A stretch of DNA of 64,000 nucleotides. Source: a virus. The notes below the pieces were generated by a model. It saw nothing but the letters and a program-made list of their open reading frames with translations. It searched no databases and was not told the DNA's origin. The stretch lies in the IMG/VR virus record IMGVR_UViG_3300046787_000130, positions 64,001-128,000 of that record. One strand, 5' to 3'. Below, piece by piece: positions 20,546 to 32,724 of the stretch (positions are counted from its first letter, which is position 1; each line of letters begins with the position of its first letter). A program made the position numbers and the translations under genes.

Positions 20546-22254
20546 TTATATTCCAAAACATTCGATGGAAGAATTTCCTGTCTACAGGAAATGTCTTTAC
20601 TGAGTTAGCACTTAACAAGCATAGCAATACGCTGATTGTCGGTGAGAATGGCGCAGGCAAGTCTACGCTACTTGACGCTGTCACGTTTGCTTTGTTTGGT
20701 AAGCCATACCGCAACATTAACAAGCCTCAACTAGTTAACTCTATCAATAACAAGGATTGTCTTGTTGAACTAGAGTTTCAACTAGGCGAGAAGCAGTATC
20801 AGATTCGTAGAGGCATCAAGCCTAACGTGTTTGAGATTAAGTTAGATGGCGAGTTGCTTAACCAAGACTCAAAGGCTAAAGACTATCAGGACATGCTTGA
20901 GCGGTTAATCCTCAAGATGAACCATAAGTCATTTACGCAGATTGTAATCCTTGGTAGTGCTTCATTCACTCCATTTATGCAACTCAACGCAGCTGACCGT
21001 CGTGCTGTTATTGAAGACTTGCTTGACATCCAAATCTTTTCTAACATGAACTCAATCGTGAAAGATAAGGTGAATGGACTCAAGTCTGAAATTAATGAAC
21101 TCAAGATTCGACTTGATAACGTGAAAGAGAAGATTGAACTTCATAAGAAGCATATTGAGGAGATGAAGAAGAATAATCAAGAGATGATTGATGCTAAGCA
21201 GACTGAGTTTGAACAAAACATTACTGCGGTCAAGGCATATCAGGAAGACCAAGAGAAGATTCAGTCTGAAATTGAAGCACTGGTTGAGCAAGTATCTGAC
21301 CTTGTTGCCGTTAGAAGCAAGAACAACAAGTTGATTAGTTTTGAGGCTAAGATTCAACAGAACATTAGCAAAACAGAAAAAGAGTTTGAGTTCTATCACG
21401 ATAACGATAACTGCCCGACTTGTAAGCAGGTGCTAGAGTCTACCTTTAAAGGCGAAAAGATTGTTGAATGCGAACGCAAGTTTGAAGAATACAATAAGGG
21501 TCTTGAGAAGTTAAAGGCAGAGCAAGAGACTGTTACTGCAAGAATCGCAGAGATTGAAGTGGTTAATAAGACCATTTCAAGTCATCAAGCCAATGTTGCT
21601 AGGACTAGTGTTTCTGTTTCTCACCTTCAGAAGTATAATATCAACCTTCAGAAAGAAATTGAAAGGCTAAGTGAAAGCAAGAGCATTAGTGCTGATACCA
21701 AGGAAGAGTCAAAGAAACTTGTTGAAGAGTATACAGGTTACTTAGAACGTCGCAAGGTAGCAACAGAAGAGAAGCAATACTATGACATTGCTGCTCAACT
21801 ACTGAAGGATGGTGGCATCAAGGCTAAGATTATCAAGCAGTACTTGCCTGTCATCAATAAACTGGTAAATAAGTATCTTGCGTCTATGGACTTCTTTGTC
21901 AACTTTAACATTGATGAAGAGTTCAAAGAGACTATCAAGTCAAGACATCGTGATGATTTCAGTTATGAAAACTTTTCAGAAGGTGAGAAGCAGAAGATTG
22001 ACTTATCGCTACTCTTGACTTGGCGCGCGATTGCGCGTATGAAGAACAGCGTCAATACCAACTTGCTCATCCTAGATGAGACATTTGACTCAAGTCTAGA
22101 TGGTAAGGGTACTGACTCATTGCTACAGATTCTTCAGACTCTACCAGATAACACTAATGTTTTTGTTATCTCGCACAAAGACCAACTGTTTGATAAATTT
22201 GCTAACGCTATTCGCTTTGAGAAAAAGCAAAACTTTTCGAGGATTGCCCCATGA
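20542..22254 (+). CDS. gp46: Recombination endonuclease ATPase (Rad50/SbcC-like)
   Basis: GENGAGKST, CPTC hook, FSEGEK, LDE.FD. Confidence 0.96.
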   Translation: MIIFQNIRWKNFLSTGNVFTELALNKHSNTLIVGENGAGKSTLLDAVTFALFGKPYRNINKPQLVNSINNKDCLVELEFQLGEKQYQIRRGIKPNVFEIKLDGELLNQDSKAKDYQDMLERLILKMNHKSFTQIVILGSASFTPFMQLNAADRRAVIEDLLDIQIFSNMNSIVKDKVNGLKSEINELKIRLDNVKEKIELHKKHIEEMKKNNQEMIDAKQTEFEQNITAVKAYQEDQEKIQSEIEALVEQVSDLVAVRSKNNKLISFEAKIQQNISKTEKEFEFYHDNDNCPTCKQVLESTFKGEKIVECERKFEEYNKGLEKLKAEQETVTARIAEIEVVNKTISSHQANVARTSVSVSHLQKYNINLQKEIERLSESKSISADTKEESKKLVEEYTGYLERRKVATEEKQYYDIAAQLLKDGGIKAKIIKQYLPVINKLVNKYLASMDFFVNFNIDEEFKETIKSRHRDDFSYENFSEGEKQKIDLSLLLTWRAIARMKNSVNTNLLILDETFDSSLDGKGTDSLLQILQTLPDNTNVFVISHKDQLFDKFANAIRFEKKQNFSRIAP

Positions 22255-22838
22255 GTAAGATGGTTAAGTTTGTTAATGGTCATATGATTTCGTATGAAGT
22301 ACTAAAACTAGTTGATAAGTATGACCCTATCCTACATAAGCCAACAATCCCTGTTGACTTTAACAACTTACAAGAGCAGCAAATAGACACAGCTGAATTG
22401 GCTTATTCGCTTGTAGAAACTATGAATAAGTTAGGTGGTCTGGGTTTATCTGCTAATCAGGTTGGCATCCCTTATCGCGTATGTGCTATTAATGTCGGTA
22501 AGGAAGCACACATACTTTTCAACCCAAGAGTAGTCATGATTTCTGGTAATGTATCTAAGTTAAAGGAAGGCTGTTTGTCATTTCCTGGGCTTTATCTAGA
22601 AGTTGGTAGACCTGAACTGGTAACTGTTGAGTTTTACGGTATTGATGGTGCTAAGCAAATTCAAACTTATGAGGGAGTCCATGCTATTTGTGTACAGCAT
22701 GAGATTGACCACCTAGATGGTATTTGCTACACGAAGAAAGTTTCTCCATTAGTTCTTGAACGTGAGAAGAAAAAGGTCAAAAAGAACATGCGCAAAATCA
22801 AGGAAGCAGCGCAAAGAATAGCCCGAAATTCTAACTAA
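22251..22838 (+). CDS. def: Peptide deformylase
   Basis: GLGLSANQVG, EGCLS, QHEIDHLDG. Confidence 0.95.
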   Translation: MSKMVKFVNGHMISYEVLKLVDKYDPILHKPTIPVDFNNLQEQQIDTAELAYSLVETMNKLGGLGLSANQVGIPYRVCAINVGKEAHILFNPRVVMISGNVSKLKEGCLSFPGLYLEVGRPELVTVEFYGIDGAKQIQTYEGVHAICVQHEIDHLDGICYTKKVSPLVLEREKKKVKKNMRKIKEAAQRIARNSN

Positions 22839-23026: not shown

Positions 23027-25234
23027 ATGGAATTAATTCAAAGCAAATCTGTTCTTGCGCGCCTCATGGCTGCTGAGAACATCAACATTCACCACCAGAA
23101 TGTGCCCACGGCATATTTTGACCTCAAGAATCGTTCGCTTGTCCTGCCCATGTGGGGTGAGATGGACGGTTACATGTATGACCTGCTCTGCGGTCATGAG
23201 GTTGGTCACGCGCTGTACACGCCGTTTGATGGCTGGCATCACAATACGCATAGCAATCCTGCTATGAAGCCATTCCTCAATGTGATTGAGGATGCGCGCA
23301 TTGAGAAGCGCATCAAGTCAAAGTTTCCTGGGCTGTCCAAGTCATTTGCTCAGGCTTATGCTGACCTGTATGAGCGTGATTTCTTTGGCATCAAGAAGAT
23401 TGATGACCTCAATACACTGAACCTCATTGACCGCATTAACTTGTATTTCAAGTTGGGCGCGCACGTCATCGTGCCGTTCACCGATGCTGAACGTGTGTTT
23501 GTTCGTGATACCAGCAACGCTGAAACGTGGGATGACGTGGTTGAGATTGCCAACCGCGTGTATGCCTATGTCAAGCAGAATGAATCCGACAAACTGAACA
23601 GCGTTCAGGATTTGATGGACAAGTTGGCTGACATGCTACAAGATGACCTTAATGATGTTGAGTCTGATGGTCAATCTGACGATTCTATGGAGTATGATGA
23701 CGCCGAATCTGATGACAGTGAGGATGATGGCGCGTCTGGCGGCATGTCTGACGAATCTGATGGTGATGGCGACGATGATTCTGACGCTGCTGGTTCTACC
23801 GGTGACGATGAAGATTCTGAAAATAGCGAGACTCCCAGCAGCACTACCGGCATGAATGGCGGCGTCAGCGATGACAAGACGCAGACTGAACCGTCATCCA
23901 TCACGGATGATATTTTCCGTCAGCGTGAATCTGAGTTGGTGTCCAACGGCAAGGGCAACGTGTATATGTTTGACCTGCCAATCCCCAACCTGAAGAACAT
24001 TATTGTTCCTGTTGAAACCACGCTCAAAAAGTTTGAGGCTGAGGCTAATCGTTTCAATCTTGATGAGATGACGCGCCAGTCTGTTTCTGAGTTCAACTCG
24101 CGCAACAGCAAGTACATTGCTATGCTGGTCAAGGAATTTGAGATGCGCAAGAATGCCACAGAATATGCCCGTGCGCAAGTTTCTCGCAGTGGTCAACTTG
24201 ACACCAGCAAACTCCATCAGTTCAAGTTGAAGAATGACCTGTTCAAGCGGGTCACTACTATCGGCAAGGGCAAGTCTCACGGCATGCAACTGGTGTTTGA
24301 CATGTCTGGTTCGATGTATGAAATCTTCAAGGAGACTGTTGAGCAGATTCTTGTGCTTTCGGTGTTCTGTAAGCGCGTCAACATTCCGTTTGAGGTGTAT
24401 GGCTTTACTGACATTCGGCGTCTGAACCCTCATGCTGGTCAGCGTTGGACACGCGGTTATGGTGAATCTGAGGCTGCGCGTAATGCCAAGCCTACCATGT
24501 ATGGTGACCCGCATTTTAGCCTCATCAAGTACCTGTCGTCAGATATGTCGGCTAGCACATACCGTCGTGCGTTTAACATGCTTGCCACCGTTGCCATGAA
24601 GTACAACAAGCACAACAACTATTTTGGTGCTGCTATGAGTTGGGATACTGCTGGCTTTGAACTTGGTGGCACGCCACTGGCTGAGACCATGATAACCATG
24701 CGCACGCTGGCTGAACAGTTTAAGCATCGCACGGGTGTTGACCACGTCAATCTGGTCATCATGACTGACGGTGAAGGGCACGGCAACAGCACCAGTCACT
24801 CTTATAACTACGCACAAGACACTGCTTATGTTGTTGACCCGCAGAACAAGGAACGTCAGAAGATATACGGCAACCAATATGGCATAAATGAAGCCGTTGA
24901 GAAACTTGTACACAAGTCGCTGTCTCAACTAGGCATCAAGGTGATTGGCTACTACATTGCCAAGCATGCTCGCCATCTCGCGTATGCTTGCCGTAGCGTC
25001 AATGCTACTGCTATGAAGGCTGCTATCAAGAAGCAGGGATTCTTTGTTGAAACCAATCGAATTGGTTTTGACAAGTATTTCCTGCTCCCGATTGGTGAGG
25101 CTCAGGCTGAAACTATGGGTGACGTTGACGCCACAAATAAGAATGCGCTGCGCACTGCCTTCAAGCAGATGCAAAAGGGCAAGCAAGCCAACCGTGCACT
25201 CGCAACCAACTTTGCCAAGGAGATTGCACTGTAA
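23027..25234 (+). CDS. CobT-like protein: HExxH peptidase-like domain, acidic linker, VWA domain
   Basis: HEVGH, NVIEDARIE, D/E-rich linker, DMSGS MIDAS, GGTPL, TDGE. Confidence 0.85.
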   Translation: MELIQSKSVLARLMAAENINIHHQNVPTAYFDLKNRSLVLPMWGEMDGYMYDLLCGHEVGHALYTPFDGWHHNTHSNPAMKPFLNVIEDARIEKRIKSKFPGLSKSFAQAYADLYERDFFGIKKIDDLNTLNLIDRINLYFKLGAHVIVPFTDAERVFVRDTSNAETWDDVVEIANRVYAYVKQNESDKLNSVQDLMDKLADMLQDDLNDVESDGQSDDSMEYDDAESDDSEDDGASGGMSDESDGDGDDDSDAAGSTGDDEDSENSETPSSTTGMNGGVSDDKTQTEPSSITDDIFRQRESELVSNGKGNVYMFDLPIPNLKNIIVPVETTLKKFEAEANRFNLDEMTRQSVSEFNSRNSKYIAMLVKEFEMRKNATEYARAQVSRSGQLDTSKLHQFKLKNDLFKRVTTIGKGKSHGMQLVFDMSGSMYEIFKETVEQILVLSVFCKRVNIPFEVYGFTDIRRLNPHAGQRWTRGYGESEAARNAKPTMYGDPHFSLIKYLSSDMSASTYRRAFNMLATVAMKYNKHNNYFGAAMSWDTAGFELGGTPLAETMITMRTLAEQFKHRTGVDHVNLVIMTDGEGHGNSTSHSYNYAQDTAYVVDPQNKERQKIYGNQYGINEAVEKLVHKSLSQLGIKVIGYYIAKHARHLAYACRSVNATAMKAAIKKQGFFVETNRIGFDKYFLLPIGEAQAETMGDVDATNKNALRTAFKQMQKGKQANRALATNFAKEIAL

Positions 25235-25304: not shown

Positions 25305-25341
25305 TTATATATGATGAATAATTCAAGTGAGGTTTGATAGT

Positions 25342-26574
25342 ATGTACGCTCCCAATTTTACTGCTGCTGAGCAGATTGCTCTGCTGGATAAACTTGCCAA
25401 GCACTACAAGAGCAGCGAGTTGACCACCAAGCAGATTCTGGACTATGCTGATGCCAACGGCATCAAGATTCCATACTTCATTTTGAATAGCAAGACTCGC
25501 AAGGTTGGTCGTGGCTTGTTTGACGTATCCACCAGTGGCGCTGCGGCTGCTGGTTCGCGCAAGCCCAAGGCAGACGCTGCGGCATCCCCTGCCGCACCTG
25601 CCCCTGCTGCTGAGGCTCAGGTTGCGATGGTCGCGCAGGTGGTTTCTCTGCCCACCAAGCGTGCTGCCAACGTGACTGAATCCTATGTGCCTGAACTGAA
25701 TCGCACGTATGTGCCGTTTGGTTTCTTCAATGACCTGAAGAACATTATCAAGTCTGGTGTGTTCTATCCGGTGTACATCACTGGCTTGTCCGGCAACGGC
25801 AAGACATTCATGGTGGAGCAGATTTGCGCGCAACTCAAGCGTGAACTCATCCGCGTGAACATCACCAAGCGCAGCGATGAGGATGCCCTGATTGGTTCCT
25901 ATGAACTGATTGACGGCAACACCGTGCGCCGTGAAGGTCCAGTGCTGACTGCGATGCGTCGTGGTGCGGTGCTGCTGCTTGACGAAACGGACTATGGCAC
26001 TGAGGATTTGCTGTGCCTTCAGCCCATCCTTGAGGGCAAGCCATACTTCGACAAGAAGACTGGTGAGGTGATTCACCCTGCCAAGGGTTTCACCGTGCTG
26101 GCTACTGCCAACACCAAGGGCAAGGGTTCAGATGATGGTCGGTTCATCGGTGCTAACACGCTGAATGAAGCATTCCTTGAGCGTTTTGCCATCACCGTTG
26201 AGCAGGAGTACCCGCCTGTTGCGACTGAGCGCAAGATTCTGAGCAAGAATTTTGCTGAACTTAACATCAATGACGACAAGTTCATTGACCATCTCATCAC
26301 CTGGGCTGAGGTCATTCGCAAGACTTTCAATGAGGGTGGTGTTGAGGAAGTCATCAGCACGCGCCGTCTGGTTCACATTGCCAAGGCATACAGCATCTTC
26401 AAGAGCCGCAAGAAGGCTGTTGAACTCTGCCTAAACCGCTTTGACAATGAAACCAAGACGGGTTTTCTTGACCTGTACACCAAGGTTGACCCTGAAGTGA
26501 GCAGCGCAAACACCGCAGCCCCTGAAACGGCGCAGACTGAAGAACACCAGATGGATAGTGACATCCCGTTCTAA
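25342..26574 (+). CDS. MoxR/CobS-like AAA+ ATPase
   Basis: GLSGNGKT, LLLDE, ATANTKGKGS.DGRF, NEAFLERF, STRRL; GAGG RBS before ATG 25342. Confidence 0.92.
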   Translation: MYAPNFTAAEQIALLDKLAKHYKSSELTTKQILDYADANGIKIPYFILNSKTRKVGRGLFDVSTSGAAAAGSRKPKADAAASPAAPAPAAEAQVAMVAQVVSLPTKRAANVTESYVPELNRTYVPFGFFNDLKNIIKSGVFYPVYITGLSGNGKTFMVEQICAQLKRELIRVNITKRSDEDALIGSYELIDGNTVRREGPVLTAMRRGAVLLLDETDYGTEDLLCLQPILEGKPYFDKKTGEVIHPAKGFTVLATANTKGKGSDDGRFIGANTLNEAFLERFAITVEQEYPPVATERKILSKNFAELNINDDKFIDHLITWAEVIRKTFNEGGVEEVISTRRLVHIAKAYSIFKSRKKAVELCLNRFDNETKTGFLDLYTKVDPEVSSANTAAPETAQTEEHQMDSDIPF

Positions 26575-26605: not shown

Positions 26606-26673
26606 AATCTTGTTGGATGTAAATGTCACCGCATCCAACAAGGCTTTTTCTTGGTGACAAATTGGAGTTGATT

Positions 26674-26955
26674 ATGTCCGCAGTTGAATCGTTTTATACT
26701 TACCTTGCTGAAGGCAATACCGTAACCACTCGCGCTGCCCGCGCAATGTTCAAGGTTGAGCACGTCAGCACTCTAGTGTACCGTTTGCGCAATGCTGGTG
26801 TTCCGGTTTACACCAACCGCTACACGACCAGCCGTGGTGAGCGCACCTTTGCCTATCGCATTGGTCAGCCATCTGAAGCATTTGAGAATGCTCTCAGCAC
26901 TCGTCATAAGGCACGTGCTCGCAAGGCACTCTACCGTCAGGCTGTTGGCGCATAA
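26674..26955 (+). CDS. Putative winged-helix DNA-binding protein
   Basis: T...AR..F.V..VS..VY.LR..G..VY.N pattern; GGAG RBS. Confidence 0.6.
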   Translation: MSAVESFYTYLAEGNTVTTRAARAMFKVEHVSTLVYRLRNAGVPVYTNRYTTSRGERTFAYRIGQPSEAFENALSTRHKARARKALYRQAVGA

Positions 26956-27063: not shown

Positions 27064-28404
27064 ATGGTAACTGTAATTGTAGCAAAATCAAAATTGGATT
27101 GTGAACAACTGCTTGGACAGTTTGTAGATGAATCGCATTATGATGTCGTTGTAGATATGGATGTTGATTGCTACATGCCCCGTAACTGTAATGCTGCTGA
27201 GATTCTAGATTGTAACCAAGATTGCAATAATTGCGATAAAGGGCAAGATGAGAGCCGTATTGCTTTCAAGTTCAGAAAGAATTGGTTCACTAAGGAAGAA
27301 CAAGAGCAAGCCTATGAAGGGTTGCGAGATGCCGCTACACCATCAAACAATCGCGGTATTGCTGCTGGACCAAGAGGCAGTTATTCAGGCTCACGTTGGT
27401 ATGTTACTGACTATCAGCAGAAGATTCTAGACTACATTGAACAGGAACCTGAAACATCTTTCACGCCATTCAAAGATATTCTAAAAGAGATTGATGCTAA
27501 AGAATCAAAGGAGCATAGCACTCATGGCGCTGTTTGGCTCACTGCTCAGATTGAAGAAGACAAGTTTGATTTTGATAAGTGGGTCAAGCAAACTATTAAA
27601 ATGACTGTTGCTGAACGCAAAGCAGCGGCTGCTGATGTAGTCAAGAATTATATCTCAGGCACTCACTATGCTAACAAAGTCAATTCAGGTATTGCCGGAT
27701 GGTATGACCGTTATCCCCGCGCACCTTTTGGTCGCGCAACAGCATACACGCAGCATCACTATAGTAAGTTTGAAAAGTCATTTCCATTCCTACAGTCTCT
27801 GAATAGAGGTTTCAAAGAGTTGATGCCACAGCGTTGGAGCAACCAACGTAAAGCCGCTGATACACTTGACCAACGGTTCCTAGTTCCTGACACCGTGTTT
27901 ACAACCATTACAGTAAACAAGACTTTCAGAACGGCTTGCCATCGTGACGCAGGCGACTTCAATGATGGGTTGAGCAACTTGCTTGTACTGTCTAACAACG
28001 GCAAGTACAGAGGCGGCTATCTAGTGTTTCCTGAATACCGAATCGCAGTAGATGTTCGTCCCGGTGACTTATTGCTAGTTAACAATCATGAAATTATTCA
28101 CGGCAATACTCCCATTGAAACATATGATGATGGTGAGCGTATTAGCCTAGTTTGCTATTTGCGTGAAGGGATGCTTGAGTTGGGTTCTAAGGAATATGAA
28201 GATGCGCGGTTCAACTTCGTAGAAGAGCGCAAGCGTAACAAGGAACATCCTGACTGGCGCAAAGGCTGGAATGGCATCAGTCCAGGAATGTGGACACATC
28301 ATGAATGGTATGACTATCTGCGAGAGTTAGATGAGACAATGCTAGCAAAGTATCATCCTGAAGTAATAGCAACTACATCAGCATTAGATTCACTCTGGGA
28401 TTGA
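27064..28404 (+). CDS. TET/JBP-family 2OG-Fe(II) dioxygenase (nucleic-acid base hydroxylase)
   Basis: FTTITVN..FRTACHRDAGD (HxD), GGYLVFP, GDLLL.N.H..IHGNT (distal H), RISLVCY.R (2OG-binding Arg). Confidence 0.8.
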   Translation: MVTVIVAKSKLDCEQLLGQFVDESHYDVVVDMDVDCYMPRNCNAAEILDCNQDCNNCDKGQDESRIAFKFRKNWFTKEEQEQAYEGLRDAATPSNNRGIAAGPRGSYSGSRWYVTDYQQKILDYIEQEPETSFTPFKDILKEIDAKESKEHSTHGAVWLTAQIEEDKFDFDKWVKQTIKMTVAERKAAAADVVKNYISGTHYANKVNSGIAGWYDRYPRAPFGRATAYTQHHYSKFEKSFPFLQSLNRGFKELMPQRWSNQRKAADTLDQRFLVPDTVFTTITVNKTFRTACHRDAGDFNDGLSNLLVLSNNGKYRGGYLVFPEYRIAVDVRPGDLLLVNNHEIIHGNTPIETYDDGERISLVCYLREGMLELGSKEYEDARFNFVEERKRNKEHPDWRKGWNGISPGMWTHHEWYDYLRELDETMLAKYHPEVIATTSALDSLWD

Positions 28405-28405
28405 T

Positions 28406-29038
28406 ATGTGCGCAGTAATTGGAGTTGACCTCAAGAATCCTTCAATGGATGACTTGCATCTTGTTATGAATGTCTTCCTTGAATCTAAGATTCGTGGAAT
28501 GCACGCAACAGGCTTAACCTTTCTATGTGATAACAAACTAATAACATTGATTGCGCCATTGCCGGCAGATAAGTTTTCTCCGATTGAAAACCTATTAGAT
28601 ATGGTAGACAACAACGCGCTTAAACTAATTGGTCATTGTCGGTATAGCACTAGTGACCTTGAATATAATCAACCGCTATACAATAATGATGTTGCCATCG
28701 TTCATAATGGCGTTATCTCTCAGGAACTACCTGAGAACTGGGAGAAGTTGTATGGGATTACTACAAAGACTAAAAACGATAGTGAACTGTTATTGCACAC
28801 AGTCGCTGATAGTCCTCTTATGCTATGGTCTAACGCTAGCATTGCTGCTATTGAGTTGCATCGCAGCGGTGTAATGAAGGCTTATCGAAATGGTAAGCGA
28901 CCGCTGTATGTAACTGAACTAGATAATGGTGTTATCTATACGTCAACTGCTGATATCATGTACAGAGCATCTAAAGGCAGGTATGTTGCCAAGCGGCTTG
29001 ATTTTGAAGGAAAGGATTTACAGTGGACTATCGCTTAA
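28406..29038 (+). CDS. Stand-alone class II (Ntn) glutamine amidotransferase
   Basis: N-terminal M-C nucleophile, RG.HATG, GHCRYST, QP, HNGVI, DSE; no synthase domain. Confidence 0.85.
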   Translation: MCAVIGVDLKNPSMDDLHLVMNVFLESKIRGMHATGLTFLCDNKLITLIAPLPADKFSPIENLLDMVDNNALKLIGHCRYSTSDLEYNQPLYNNDVAIVHNGVISQELPENWEKLYGITTKTKNDSELLLHTVADSPLMLWSNASIAAIELHRSGVMKAYRNGKRPLYVTELDNGVIYTSTADIMYRASKGRYVAKRLDFEGKDLQWTIA

Positions 29039-30042
29039 AAGAAAATCGACGTGAAGCATTCATCCGTTGGTATGCTTGGGCATTAGAGTACAAAGACTGC
29101 GACCCTGCTGTTTGGCTTACAAACTACCTCAACAAGCGTTATGAACATAATGATGAAGAACGTATTTGGTTATGTTGGTTGTATGGTAATACTTACCAGT
29201 TGCCTACAGCATGGGTACTCAAGAATGAATTTCCAGACTATGAACTTGCTACAGTAGATAGAATCACTGCTTGGAACACTACTAACTATAAGAGACTGCG
29301 ATATCAAACTGACACCAAGTGGAACAAGGGTCATCTGCCTGCGATGTTCGCATCATATCAAGAACTAATCGGCAATCGCAGCCAACGTGAAGTGATGGAG
29401 AGTTATTATGAGGGAACACCTGAAACTAATTTTAATAGCATATGGAATCTATTTCAGAGCAGTCTCCATAAGTTTGGTCGTTATTCTTGCTGGTTCTATC
29501 TACAACATCTTCATCACACTGCTGGTCTTGATGTTGTACCTACTAATCTCATGCTCTCTGATTATAGTGGCTCCCGTTCACATCGTAACGGCTTGCTTTT
29601 CGCCCTTGGACAAGATGACAGTGTCGATGAGCGCCTTTCAAGCGCGAAATATAATAGTCTTGAGTCAGCTGCGGCAGATATTCTCATCGAAATGAAAATT
29701 CGATTCCCTAAGATACGGGATGAGATTAATTTCTTTACGATGGAAACCTGCTTGTGTTCATTCAAGAAACTATTCAGAGAGAAGCATGGACGATATCTTG
29801 GGTATTATCTTGACAGGCAATCTGAAGAGATAGTACAAGCAGAGCAAGATGGTTGGCATGGCATTGATTGGAGTGTACTATGGCAAGCGCGAAATGAGAC
29901 ACTAGACAATCGGTTGGTAGGCAGAAAAGAAATTGAGGATGAAAGGTTTACTTTTTTCCTCCGTTCAGGTAGAATAGACCGATTGGAATGGATGTTTGAT
30001 GATTCCGCTTTGCCTGTAGGCTTGGAGGCATTTTATGATTAG
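29023..30042 (+). CDS. aGPT-Pplase2-type amino acid:DNA transferase (HhH-like)
   Basis: D.DP, WLYGNTY, KFGRYSCW.YL (HhH-like), GS.SHRNGL, ETCLC.FKK, RY.GYY.DRQ. Confidence 0.75.
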   Translation: MDYRLKENRREAFIRWYAWALEYKDCDPAVWLTNYLNKRYEHNDEERIWLCWLYGNTYQLPTAWVLKNEFPDYELATVDRITAWNTTNYKRLRYQTDTKWNKGHLPAMFASYQELIGNRSQREVMESYYEGTPETNFNSIWNLFQSSLHKFGRYSCWFYLQHLHHTAGLDVVPTNLMLSDYSGSRSHRNGLLFALGQDDSVDERLSSAKYNSLESAAADILIEMKIRFPKIRDEINFFTMETCLCSFKKLFREKHGRYLGYYLDRQSEEIVQAEQDGWHGIDWSVLWQARNETLDNRLVGRKEIEDERFTFFLRSGRIDRLEWMFDDSALPVGLEAFYD

Positions 30043-30616
30043 AGTGATTGCTGTCGGGGGTGAACCTGCTACTGGCAAGACAACCCTGATGTTTAAGTTG
30101 ATTGATATGGCTGATGATTGGGTTACTTGTAAGCCTGAAAAACTTCTTGATGCCTTGTATAGCAAGACATTAAACACTTACATTCTTGGTAAGTATGAAA
30201 AGGGAAGTACATTTCAAGGTACTGATAGGTTGAGCATGGCAGTTCAGCCTGATGCCGAAAAGTTTATCAGTAGCCTTAACTATGAAGACTCTGATGTCAA
30301 TGTAATCTTTGAAGGTGATAGGTTATTCAACAGTAAATTTCTTGAGCACTGCTCCAAGAACACTAAGCGGTTTAATATCATACTGTTGCAAGTTGCCGCT
30401 GATATTGTAAAGCAGCGACACATTAACCGCAATGATACGCAAACCGAAAAATTTATAAATGGTCGCAAGACTAAACTAGACAATATCAGTAGTTCCCTAG
30501 TGTTGATGGACTATATAAGTGTAAGGGAAAACAACACTGTTGTTGACCAGCAGAAGATTATTAGTGATATTGTTAATTACTTTAAGTGGAGTGAGAATAA
30601 TGCAACTGGAATTTAA
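30035..30616 (+). CDS. P-loop nucleotide kinase (5-hydroxymethyluracil DNA kinase-like)
   Basis: GGEPATGKT, LGKY...F.GTDRLS, EGDRL; adjacent to aGPT-Pplase2. Confidence 0.75.
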   Translation: MIRVIAVGGEPATGKTTLMFKLIDMADDWVTCKPEKLLDALYSKTLNTYILGKYEKGSTFQGTDRLSMAVQPDAEKFISSLNYEDSDVNVIFEGDRLFNSKFLEHCSKNTKRFNIILLQVAADIVKQRHINRNDTQTEKFINGRKTKLDNISSSLVLMDYISVRENNTVVDQQKIISDIVNYFKWSENNATGI

Positions 30617-31397
30617 GGTTGAAGATTTGAAGAAGAAGAAATTGTTTATTGCTACGCCAATGTATGGCGGGCAGTGCTTTGGTATGTATGCAAAGTCTAC
30701 GCTAGATTTACAGGCACTTTGCATTCAGCATGGAATTGATGTTAGGTTCTCATTTATCTTTAATGAATCCCTAATCACCCGCGCAAGAAACTATCTTGTT
30801 GATGAATTCCTACGTTCAGGGTTCACTCATATGTTGTTCCTTGATGCTGATATCCATTTTGACCCGCGTGACGTTATTGCCATGCTTGGTCTTGACCGTG
30901 ATATCATTGGTGCGCCATATCCTAAGAAGAGCGTTAAGTGGTCTTCTGTAAAGGAAGCAATCAAGCGCAATCCTGATATTACTCATGCTGAACTTGAAAA
31001 GGTTACAGGTGACTTTGTGTTCAATCCAGTTCCTGGTACTGAACGCTTTCAGGTTAATCAGCCTGTTGAGGTACTTGAACTTGGAACTGGCTTCATGATG
31101 ATTAAGCGTGAAGTGTTTGAAAAGTTTGAGAAGCAGTATCCTGAACTTCGCTACAAGCCAGACCACGTTGGTCAGGCTAACTTTGATGGCGCACGTTACA
31201 TTCACGCATACTTTGACACCGTGATTGACCGTGGTAAGTCAGACCGCTATCTCTCTGAAGACTATATGTTCTGTCAGTGGTGGCGTAACATGGGTGGTCA
31301 GATTTGGCTCTGCCCGTGGATGCGTACACATCACATCGGAACCTACGCCTTCACTGGCGACTTGGCTGCTGTAGCAAACTACGTCGGCACTCTATGA
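30600..31397 (+). CDS. GT-A fold glycosyltransferase-like protein
   Basis: IATPMYGG, SLITRARN, THMLFLDADI (DxD), GTGFM.I.R.VF, SEDY.FC. Confidence 0.75.
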   Translation: MQLEFKVEDLKKKKLFIATPMYGGQCFGMYAKSTLDLQALCIQHGIDVRFSFIFNESLITRARNYLVDEFLRSGFTHMLFLDADIHFDPRDVIAMLGLDRDIIGAPYPKKSVKWSSVKEAIKRNPDITHAELEKVTGDFVFNPVPGTERFQVNQPVEVLELGTGFMMIKREVFEKFEKQYPELRYKPDHVGQANFDGARYIHAYFDTVIDRGKSDRYLSEDYMFCQWWRNMGGQIWLCPWMRTHHIGTYAFTGDLAAVANYVGTL

Positions 31398-32046: not shown

Positions 32047-32724
32047 ATGAAACTGTCGAATGATACTGTTGAAATTTTGAAGAACTTCTCTGCCATTAAT
32101 CAGAGCATTCAGTTCAAGCAGGGTACGGTCATCAAGACCATTTCCCCGTTGCGTACAATCTATGTTGAAGCAGTTGTTGCTGAGCAGTTCCCGCAGGAAT
32201 TTGCTTTGTATGACTTGAACAAGTTGCTTGCTAAGATGTCTTTGTACAAAGAAGCAGACCTAAGTTTTGCTGCTGACCGAATCAACATTGCCACGGACAA
32301 CCGCAAGAAGAATGACAATATCAAGTATTGCTCCCCTTCTGTTATTGTTGTTCCGCCAGAGAAGCCTATCAACTTTGGTGCTGCTGATTGCGAGTTTACC
32401 CTCAACAAGGAAGACTTGGATTGGATGAAGAAGAGTGCTGGCATCTCTGGTTCACCCAACTTTGTTTTTGAGAGTGATGGTGAGAAGGTCTACTTGATTG
32501 CTACTGACGTCAAGGATGACTCCGCTGACCAGTCTAAGATTGAGATTGGTGATAGCGACGGTGACAAGTATCGCGTAGTCATGAAGGTTGAAAACTTTAA
32601 GTTGGTTGATGGTTCATACAATGTAAAGATTGCCAAGAAGGGTCTTGCGTTGTTCCAGCACACTACTAAGAACATCAAGTACTTCATTGCTATTGAATCG
32701 GCACAGAGCAAGTTTGGGGAGTAA
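32047..32724 (+). CDS. gp45: Sliding clamp
   Basis: MKLS..T..ILKNFS.INQSI, F..YDL..L, ENFKL..G.Y, Y.IA.E. Confidence 0.95.
   Translation: MKLSNDTVEILKNFSAINQSIQFKQGTVIKTISPLRTIYVEAVVAEQFPQEFALYDLNKLLAKMSLYKEADLSFAADRINIATDNRKKNDNIKYCSPSVIVVPPEKPINFGAADCEFTLNKEDLDWMKKSAGISGSPNFVFESDGEKVYLIATDVKDDSADQSKIEIGDSDGDKYRVVMKVENFKLVDGSYNVKIAKKGLALFQHTTKNIKYFIAIESAQSKFGE

Follow-up and report, generated by a model that had tools for sequence, protein, structure and literature searches.

The window analysed in this work, a 64,000-nucleotide stretch of viral DNA (IMG/VR record IMGVR_UViG_3300046787_000130, positions 64,001 to 128,000), carries a gene for a stand-alone class II glutamine amidotransferase (GATase) that overlaps the start of a gene encoding a protein of the ADDT, or aGPT-Pplase2, family. 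Judging from sequence comparisons and structural models, we consider it probable that the two products form a two-subunit glutamine:5-phosphomethyl-dU-DNA amidotransferase that makes 5-aminomethyl-2'-deoxyuridine (5-NmdU) directly, the GATase serving as the glutaminase and the ADDT protein as the acceptor subunit. The window comes from the genome of a T4-like phage, of which it forms a co-directional stretch; the virus record comprises 161 kb and is estimated to be 96% complete. Both genes belong to a cassette of five genes, packed by overlaps or 1-nt gaps on the plus strand, which encode a TET/JBP-family dioxygenase, the GATase, the ADDT protein, a 5-hydroxymethyluracil (5-hmU) DNA kinase, together with a GT-A-like glycosyltransferase candidate.

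The GATase, the ADDT protein, and their fusions

The GATase gene (28406..29038, plus strand) encodes a 210-residue class II enzyme of the N-terminal nucleophile (Ntn), PurF-like type, and is a real gene rather than a chance open reading frame. Its product scored 45.4 bits against Pfam GATase_6, for which the cut-off is 27, and 25.3 bits against GATase_7, for which it is 25; the matches span residues 74-183. The protein starts with MCAVIG, the first two residues, M1 and C2, being invariant in 45 homologues. Since 210 residues leave no room for a second domain, the protein lacks a synthase domain. An earlier note on this DNA, made from the sequence letters, had described a class II GATase of this length with Cys2 as the nucleophile and no synthase domain, and the reading frame, the Pfam matches, and the Met-Cys start all bear that description out. 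Relatives of the protein were found at at least 590 places in IMG/VR, and a profile search of 1.8 billion proteins returned 222 clusters (50% identity) at E<1e-30, nearly all of them stand-alone proteins of 200-250 residues. The alignment of the 45 homologues (46-87% identity) contained 43 invariant columns, including C2, R30-G31, R79 (within HCRYSTSD), N101-G102 (VHNGV), and D125 (KNDSE). Following PurF and GlmS, with equivalences assigned by motif and order rather than by superposition, we take C2 to be the Cys1 nucleophile, R30-G31 the RG loop, R79 the arginine that holds the alpha-carboxylate, N101-G102 the oxyanion hole, and D125 the aspartate that holds the alpha-amino group. Given the invariant R79/D125 pocket, the substrate should, like free glutamine, present an amino-acid end with both alpha groups unbound; this speaks against a glutamine that is attached to DNA by way of its alpha-amine.

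The AlphaFold2 (AF2) model of the window GATase (pLDDT 91, pTM 0.88) has the alpha-beta-beta-alpha fold of Ntn enzymes. In a Foldseek search with this model, PurF was the best match (1ao0, E 8.5e-10, TM 0.67-0.71), followed by GlmS/GFAT, with the stand-alone hydrolase EgtC lower (E 3e-7). When a fused homologue was compared instead, the VIA Z scores were 24.5 for Escherichia coli PurF (26% identity), 23.2 for GlmS, and 20.7 for EgtC, a small gap. A sequence search of the PDB with the GATase gave no true match, and these relationships were seen by fold search only.

The ADDT gene (29023..30042, plus strand) starts with GTG and encodes a 339-residue protein that matched Pfam ADDT (PF18724) with 77.8 bits (cut-off 26.2) over profile positions 15-231 of 232; we propose it as the ammonia-using acceptor, or 'synthase', subunit. 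Translated from the GTG at 29023, the product begins (M)DYRLKENRREAF, in agreement with the consensus MDYRLxENRREAF of 42 homologues, most of which start with ATG at that point, and a Shine-Dalgarno-like AAGGA lies about 9 nt 5' of the GTG. With this start correct, the GATase and ADDT genes overlap by 16 nt (29023-29038); the overlap of that length noted earlier is thus upheld by the consensus N-terminus. The motif E241-T242-x-x-C245 was invariant in 43 ADDT sequences, and the catalytic E243-T244-x-x-C247 in gp46 of phage PaMx11 is spaced in the same way, the correspondence of catalytic residues being mapped by motif only. A structural counterpart was found through the ADDT domain of P0098, a fused homologue described below, which is 41% identical to the window ADDT and was modelled in its place: compared with the gp46 crystal structure (8z2m_A), this domain gave a Z score of 18.8 and a root-mean-square deviation of 3.3 over 254 residues. 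A PDB search with the ADDT profile itself gave no true match.

The partnership between the two proteins is suggested by fusions. At least five diverged proteins join an N-terminal GATase to a C-terminal ADDT domain, namely P0098 (588 residues), P0157 (584), P0153 (555), P0175 (560), and P0252 (625); the last four share 32-47% identity with P0098, along 96-98% of the latter. The Met-Cys N-terminus is kept in all five. An N-terminal GATase followed by a C-terminal acceptor domain is the domain order of class II amidotransferases such as PurF, GlmS, and AsnB. The AF2 model of P0098, computed on a clean mixed alignment (A6), reached a pLDDT of 89.7 and a pTM of 0.89 over its 588 residues, with disorder limited to the linker at 227-237; such scores imply that the model places the two domains against each other confidently and in a fixed way. 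A shape search of the ESM Atlas with the fusion model returned single-domain matches only, which do not corroborate the domain packing independently.

The surroundings of the fusions separate the GATase from the dioxygenase. In the four fusion contexts that were looked up, a 5-hmU DNA kinase gene adjoined the fusion in every case; three of these contigs, of 5.7-8.7 kb, carried a gene for a ThyA-like dUMP hydroxymethylase and no TET gene, and the fourth was 2.5 kb long. Because the three longer contigs are TET-free and carry a dUMP hydroxymethylase gene, the GATase is seen to accompany the ADDT irrespective of where 5-hmU comes from. In other TET-free clusters, stand-alone GATase genes overlap the start of an ADDT gene or of an ADDT-GNAT fusion gene. 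Caulobacter phage Cr30, on the other hand, has a TET homologue of 46% identity and a distant ADDT (27%), and no GATase. Taken together with a rearranged cassette described in the next section, the TET-free clusters and Cr30 indicate that the GATase follows a particular ADDT subfamily and not the dioxygenase. Distance matrices from 29 loci agree with this, in that the partial Mantel correlation was 0.57 (p=0.0005) between GATase and ADDT and -0.01 between GATase and TET despite the adjacency and translational coupling of the TET gene; the test is liberal for related sequences, so the correlation counts as supporting evidence only.

Some further features of these proteins were recorded. The stand-alone GATases (alignment A1) end in variable tails of 10-45 residues, and all of them have, close to the C-terminus, a conserved D-(L/Y/F)-Q motif (D204 nearly invariant, Q206 invariant), present in the window as KDLQWTIA (approximately 29018-29026). 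Four of the five fusions (P0098, P0157, P0153, and P0175) retain the motif, as D/E-x-Q, in the linker between their domains, and the AF2 fusion model puts it where the low-confidence linker begins; the motif may be a docking peptide. Other ADDT fusions (P0167, P0174, and P0173; loci L146 and L147) join an N-terminal ADDT to a C-terminal GNAT or to a C-terminal 5-hmU kinase; the ADDT has the appearance of a hub around which several enzymes assemble on DNA.

Conservation of the cassette and its variable slot

Related loci were collected from IMG/VR through the GATase search (59 loci), the ADDT alignment (best 80 of at least 590), and the GATase alignment (best 80 of at least 590). Among the matches listed, GATase and ADDT genes occurred together wherever the flanking sequence was long enough to tell, in 38 of 38 loci reached by way of ADDT and in 36 of 36 reached by way of the GATase. 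The co-occurrence analysis that the earlier note had suggested therefore found the linkage conserved, with both genes in all 74 loci. Among the same listed matches, a TET gene was situated upstream in 61 of 61 loci, its stop overlapping the GATase start by 1 nt in most and lying within 120 nt of it in 57 of the 61. The usual order is TET, GATase, variable slot, ADDT, and kinase. Three further divergent ADDT genes also had a GATase gene just upstream, one of them in a T4-like cassette rearranged to GATase-x-ADDT-TET-kinase.

The slot between GATase and ADDT measures 0.5-3.6 kb and, in 91 distinct relatives, held a GNAT gene in 57 and an Amidoligase_2 gene in 47; a low-molecular-weight phosphatase, a 2-oxoglutarate (2OG) oxygenase, a GT1 glycosyltransferase, and unknown proteins were found in some relatives. 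Among the matches listed, it was empty only in the window and in a twin locus of 87-97% identity (L002), and no homologue of any slot gene, GNAT and amidoligase included, was detected across the whole 161-kb genome. The window phage is thus the carrier of a minimal form of the cassette. The earlier note had assigned the GATase to the position held by tailoring enzymes in known thymidine hypermodification clusters; instead, the GATase is an invariant core gene of this ADDT subfamily, and the true slot lies between it and the ADDT gene and is empty here.

Amidoligase genes also occur elsewhere. In the unannotated sewage phage Simon (L141, PQ683277.1, 9001-10360), an Amidoligase_2 gene is paired with a gene for a low-molecular-weight phosphatase, with no GATase or ADDT gene within 9 kb, and in the jumbo Vibrio phage 2.275.O (L142, 8001-12150) a 29%-identical amidoligase is encoded beside 7-deazaguanine genes and another Ntn protein, a 'nucleophile aminohydrolase'. 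The amidoligase is a mobile module, untied to the GATase. When the GNAT proteins of the relatives were searched by tblastn against GenBank phages for kinship to the 5-NmdU acetyltransferase of PaMx11, no match was obtained.

The window corresponds to a published cassette type, that of the clade C1 TET_JBP/5mYOX enzymes, with TET/JBP, GATase, AADT, and P-loop kinase genes and AAA+ and HTH genes nearby (PMC8989533; PMC13229309). Lee 2021 counted 'amidoligases and amidotransferases' among the companion genes that had no assigned function (PMC8989533), and O'Toole 2026 stated of the T-dioxygenases of clade C1 that they are 'consistently linked with' GATases, P-loop kinases, and AADTs (PMC13229309). 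The cassette and the linkage are hence already published as an uncharacterised association, and it is the function of the GATase alone that is undescribed. That part of the claim of an undescribed role in the earlier note stands; the linkage itself was in print (PMC8989533, PMC13229309), and Gat-QueC offers a precedent (PMC6884629). What we propose as new is the ADDT as an acceptor subunit with ammonia as its co-substrate, the Rosetta-stone fusions, and a logic in which the core makes an amine and the slot enzymes decorate it.

Proposed route to 5-aminomethyl-deoxyuridine and competing explanations

The gene for the TET/JBP-family Fe(II)/2OG dioxygenase (27064..28404, plus strand; 446 residues) is supported by Pfam Tet_JBP (82.6 bits), phrog_24024 (1.7e-159), and an HRD...H motif, and its stop codon, TGA at 28402-28404, is separated by 1 nt from the GATase ATG. 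From sequence, it is a predicted post-replicative thymine dioxygenase yielding 5-hmU in DNA. The 161-kb, 96%-complete genome contains ThyX, with no C5-methyltransferase (PF00145) and no ThyA-like dUMP hydroxymethylase (PF00303) detected across it; a search of the whole genome for a ParB-like activator (PF02195) was likewise negative. As the genome holds no other source of 5-hmU or 5-methylcytosine, the modified base should be thymine, reached by TET/JBP on finished DNA, a route that matches the T-dioxygenase activity demonstrated for phage '5mYOX' enzymes (PMC13229309). The 'pyrimidine' of the earlier note can accordingly be narrowed to thymine. The next enzyme would be the P-loop 5-hydroxymethyluracil DNA kinase (30035..30616, plus strand; 193 residues), which matched Pfam Ploopntkinase3 (28.3 bits) and bears the Walker A sequence GEPATGKT; its start at 30035 overlaps the ADDT stop by 8 nt, and the gene is located 3' of ADDT in every related locus among the matches listed.

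In the route that we propose, TET/JBP would hydroxylate thymine in finished DNA to 5-hmU, as expected from its family, whose activity was shown for other phage members (PMC13229309), and from the lack of another 5-hmU or 5-methylcytosine source in the genome. The kinase would then produce 5-phosphomethyl-dU (5-PmdU), an activity shown for its family in the literature. Cys245 of the ADDT would attack C6 and the phosphate would be expelled, giving rise to an electrophilic exocyclic methylene at C5; this mechanism was shown for M6 gp51 and PaMx11 gp46. In characterised ADDTs it is the glycine amine or the serine hydroxyl that reacts with the methylene, and beta-mercaptoethanol and borohydride can do so in vitro (PMC8989533; PMC11472151). 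Because the ADDT methylene is trapped by nucleophiles as unrelated as amines, hydroxyls, beta-mercaptoethanol, and borohydride (PMC8989533), ammonia is chemically competent. In the final step, ammonia rather than an amino acid would add to the methylene to give 5-NmdU; the docked GATase would free this ammonia from L-glutamine at its Cys1. The new primary amine would next be acylated, in most relatives, by a GNAT or an amidoligase, and the GNAT of PaMx11 acetylates exactly 5-NmdU (PMC8989533). In the window phage, which lacks both, the end product would be free 5-NmdU, possibly beside 5-hmU glycosylated by the GT-A-like enzyme. An amine-making core would explain the presence of amine-acylating enzymes (GNAT and Amidoligase_2) in the slot, as well as the ADDT-GNAT and ADDT-kinase fusions, which would join successive steps. 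Of the two roles that the earlier note had offered for the GATase, the supply of ammonia for a 5-aminomethyl pyrimidine is therefore the one favoured by the fusions, the PurF-like fold, the free-glutamine pocket, the co-evolution with ADDT, and the amine acylases.

Several observations weigh against this amidotransferase. Fusions of operon genes that already overlap can arise and persist without any channelling of substrate, and one fusion joins a GATase to Amidoligase_2 (P0034), pointing to another possible acceptor. The best-kept junction in the clade is that between TET and GATase, not that between GATase and ADDT, and among the matches listed the latter two are 0.5-3.6 kb apart except in the window and its near-twin. 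The GATase-ADDT pair was found in no cultured GenBank phage, where the genera hit by the GATase and those hit by ADDT barely overlap. Finally, the window ADDT and gp46 are too distant in sequence for detection by hidden Markov models: hhalign of the ADDT alignment against gp46, with its glycine-binding Asp24, Trp146, and Lys150, gave a probability of 0.2, which leaves room for an amino-acid co-substrate.

Characterised ADDTs do use amino acids, and hydrolysis of gamma-glutamyl amides is known from stand-alone class II GATase domains, among which EgtC is a strong structural match (Z 20.7 with the fused homologue; Foldseek E 3e-7 with the window GATase). The ADDT could thus install glutamine or a gamma-glutamyl compound on 5-PmdU, and the GATase, as an EgtC-like Ntn hydrolase, could cleave the gamma-amide on DNA, leaving alpha-glutamyl-thymine or 5-aminomethyl-dU and glutamate; distant phage GATase relatives (25% identical) do lie in clusters with an amidoligase and a gamma-glutamyl cyclotransferase. 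We nevertheless regard this as unlikely. PurF and GlmS outscore EgtC structurally, if by a gap too small to be decisive, and Arg79 and Asp125 need free alpha ends, which rules out an N-alpha-linked glutamine and would leave the poorly nucleophilic amide nitrogen of glutamine to attack the methylene. The GATase-ADDT fusions mirror the architecture of amidotransferases, and no amidoligase, ATP-grasp enzyme, or other gamma-glutamyl ligase is present in the cassette or the genome. Hydrolysis of a glutamine or glutamate adduct, the second role in the earlier note, is consequently disfavoured on pocket, fusion architecture, and gene content alike.

Of comparably low probability is the idea that the ADDT installs an ordinary amino acid and that the ammonia of the GATase amidates a carboxylate or another group, in partnership with the amidoligase of the relatives or, in the window phage, with some other activating enzyme. 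The P0034 fusion fits this idea, as does the location of Amidoligase_2 directly after the GATase in 47 of the 91 relatives, and Lee 2021 listed amidoligases and amidotransferases together as uncharacterised companions (PMC8989533). However, the amidoligase is missing from at least 40 GNAT-only relatives and from the whole 161-kb genome while the GATase is always there, GATase-ADDT fusions outnumber the GATase-amidoligase fusion by five to one, and it is ADDT with which the GATase co-evolves. A partnership with the dioxygenase, in which the GATase would activate or regulate TET/JBP in place of ParB or feed glutamate towards 2OG, seems very improbable to us. In its favour, the two genes overlap or abut in most loci (no more than 120 nt separate them in 57 of 61, among the matches listed), and the genome lacks ParB, some ParB-less clade C1 enzymes being inactive alone (PMC13229309). 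Nevertheless, the GATase-ADDT pairs, fused and stand-alone, looked up on contigs of at least 5.7 kb stand in TET-free, dUMP-hydroxymethylase clusters, Cr30 has the 46%-identical TET and no GATase, the partial correlation between GATase and TET is zero, one cassette has its TET gene moved away from the GATase, and the product of a glutaminase is glutamate, not 2OG. Two other assignments were rejected: membership of the GATase in a PaP3-type amidoligase system, as the neighbours differ and identity is approximately 25%, and a role in the amidation of 5-carboxy-U, as the TET-free clusters make only 5-hmU.

Neighbouring genes, known systems, and implications

The fifth gene of the cassette encodes the GT-A-like glycosyltransferase candidate (30600..31397, plus strand; 265 residues from the ATG at 30600), supported by phrog_1574 (2.8e-62), a weak match to Anp1 (GT62), and an LDAD motif. 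It is translationally coupled to the kinase gene and is found 3' of the kinase in T4-like cassettes only. Its product may act on the aminomethyl base or, as in base J, on residual 5-hmU; it may also be unrelated to the modification. At the other end, a small winged-helix protein of 110 residues (26623..26955, plus strand; Pfam HTH_39, 7e-5) is encoded directly 5' of TET/JBP, a position kept in a T4-like subset of the loci (L002, L008, L069, L070, L078, L103, L107, L108, L110, and L124). Further upstream are situated a gene for a 735-residue protein (23027-25234), annotated by phrog_459 as a 'peptidase' and weakly CobT-like, and one for a CobS/MoxR-like AAA+ ATPase (25327-26574; AAA_5 and CbbQ_C). 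This gene pair lies just 5' of the HTH-TET cassette in T4-like relatives and just 3' of the kinase in the rearranged cassette (the context of P0218), and 'AAA' and 'HTH' were listed in such neighbourhoods by O'Toole 2026 (PMC13229309). These two proteins might assist the ParB-less dioxygenase by metal loading or remodelling, or their position might reflect mere synteny.

The T4-like character of the window is apparent from SbcCD, a peptide deformylase, the CobS-like AAA+ protein, the gp45 clamp, and the gp44 loader. The C-terminus of TET/JBP reads ...SALDSLWD (28370-28404) and that of the ADDT ...GLEAFYD (30010-30042); the clamp gene is located 2 kb further 3' (32047-32724). The peptide deformylase is encoded at 22251-22838 (Pfam 2e-38). 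Exposure of the Cys1 of a GATase needs deformylation and removal of the initial Met, and peptide deformylase genes are common in marine phages; the presence of this gene alongside a Cys1 GATase is probably a coincidence.

Among known systems, one of the closest parallels is the 5-AcNmdU pathway of PaMx11, composed of the glycine:DNA transferase/PUGT gp46, the flavin adenine dinucleotide (FAD) lyase gp47, the acetyltransferase gp48, and the 5-hmU DNA kinase gp49 (PMC8989533, PMC11472151). The window cassette shares with it a kinase and an ADDT acting on 5-PmdU in DNA, the E-T-x-x-C motif, the (proposed) 5-aminomethyl-dU intermediate, and, in most relatives, a GNAT. The two differ in the source of 5-hmU, which would be TET/JBP after replication in the window and is a dUMP hydroxymethylase in PaMx11, and in the lack of a GNAT in the window phage. 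Furthermore, PaMx11 reaches 5-NmdU in two steps, glycine transfer and FAD-dependent cleavage, whereas the window has no FAD lyase and a GATase instead. By analogy, a GATase in place of the FAD lyase suggests a one-step amination.

PurF offers the parallel for the reaction itself, since in that enzyme glutamine-derived ammonia displaces pyrophosphate from phosphoribosyl pyrophosphate. In addition to being the best structural match of the GATase, PurF has the same Cys1, Arg, Asn-Gly, and Asp site and the same domain order as the natural fusions, and the proposed reaction would be formally alike, with ammonia replacing a phosphate-type leaving group on a ring-adjacent carbon. It differs in that the acceptor here is an all-helical ADDT and not a phosphoribosyltransferase, that the base stands in polymeric DNA, and that the window encodes separate polypeptides. 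EgtC shares the stand-alone class II GATase fold of approximately 230 residues with Cys1 but hydrolyses the gamma-glutamyl amide of a small molecule and passes ammonia to nothing, while the GATase described here has its partner fused to it in several relatives. In the Gat-QueC proteins of phage 9g and Crenarchaeota, which make deoxyarchaeosine and archaeosine, a glutamine amidotransferase (Gat) domain is linked to an enzyme of nucleic-acid modification and provides the nitrogen for a base hypermodified in phage DNA (PMC6884629); those proteins belong to the 7-deazaguanine pathway, with QueC as the acceptor, an amidine formed from a nitrile, and no relationship to ADDT. In PaP3-like phage systems the neighbours are an amidoligase, a COOH-NH2 ligase, and a gamma-glutamyl cyclotransferase, none of which lies beside the window GATase, and the GATases are approximately 25% identical. 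Compared to the 'ParB-dependent' subclass of 5mYOX cassettes, the window genome lacks the ParB activator and is stripped down, with neither GNAT nor amidoligase. As for Cr30 (L140, NC_025422.1, 35-8682), its TET/JBP homologue is annotated as a 'putative SNF2 DNA repair protein', its kinase homologue as 'terminase small subunit', and its distant ADDT as hypothetical; a thymidine hypermodification based on a T-dioxygenase may have gone unrecognised in this cultured phage.

We incline, by a little, to the broader view that this would be the first amidotransferase acting on a base within polymeric DNA, a one-step source of 5-aminomethyl-dU and a convergent replacement for glycine transfer and the flavin lyase, in a large, so far uncultured ADDT subfamily with ammonia as its co-substrate, and that the free, positively charged aminomethyl base is the final product in the window phage. 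If true, the glutamine-dependent amination of a nucleobase in the polymer would constitute a new class of DNA reaction, and the ADDT electrophile could be paired with a dedicated subunit that generates the nucleophile. It would also give a function to the companion amidotransferases, a question left open in two papers by the group to which the definition of thymidine hypermodification is due, and allow a reactive primary amine to be placed on DNA thymines by a short enzymatic sequence, which would be useful for labelling. The logic of several hundred metagenomic cassettes would then be explained by a core that makes a primary amine and variable acylases that decorate it.

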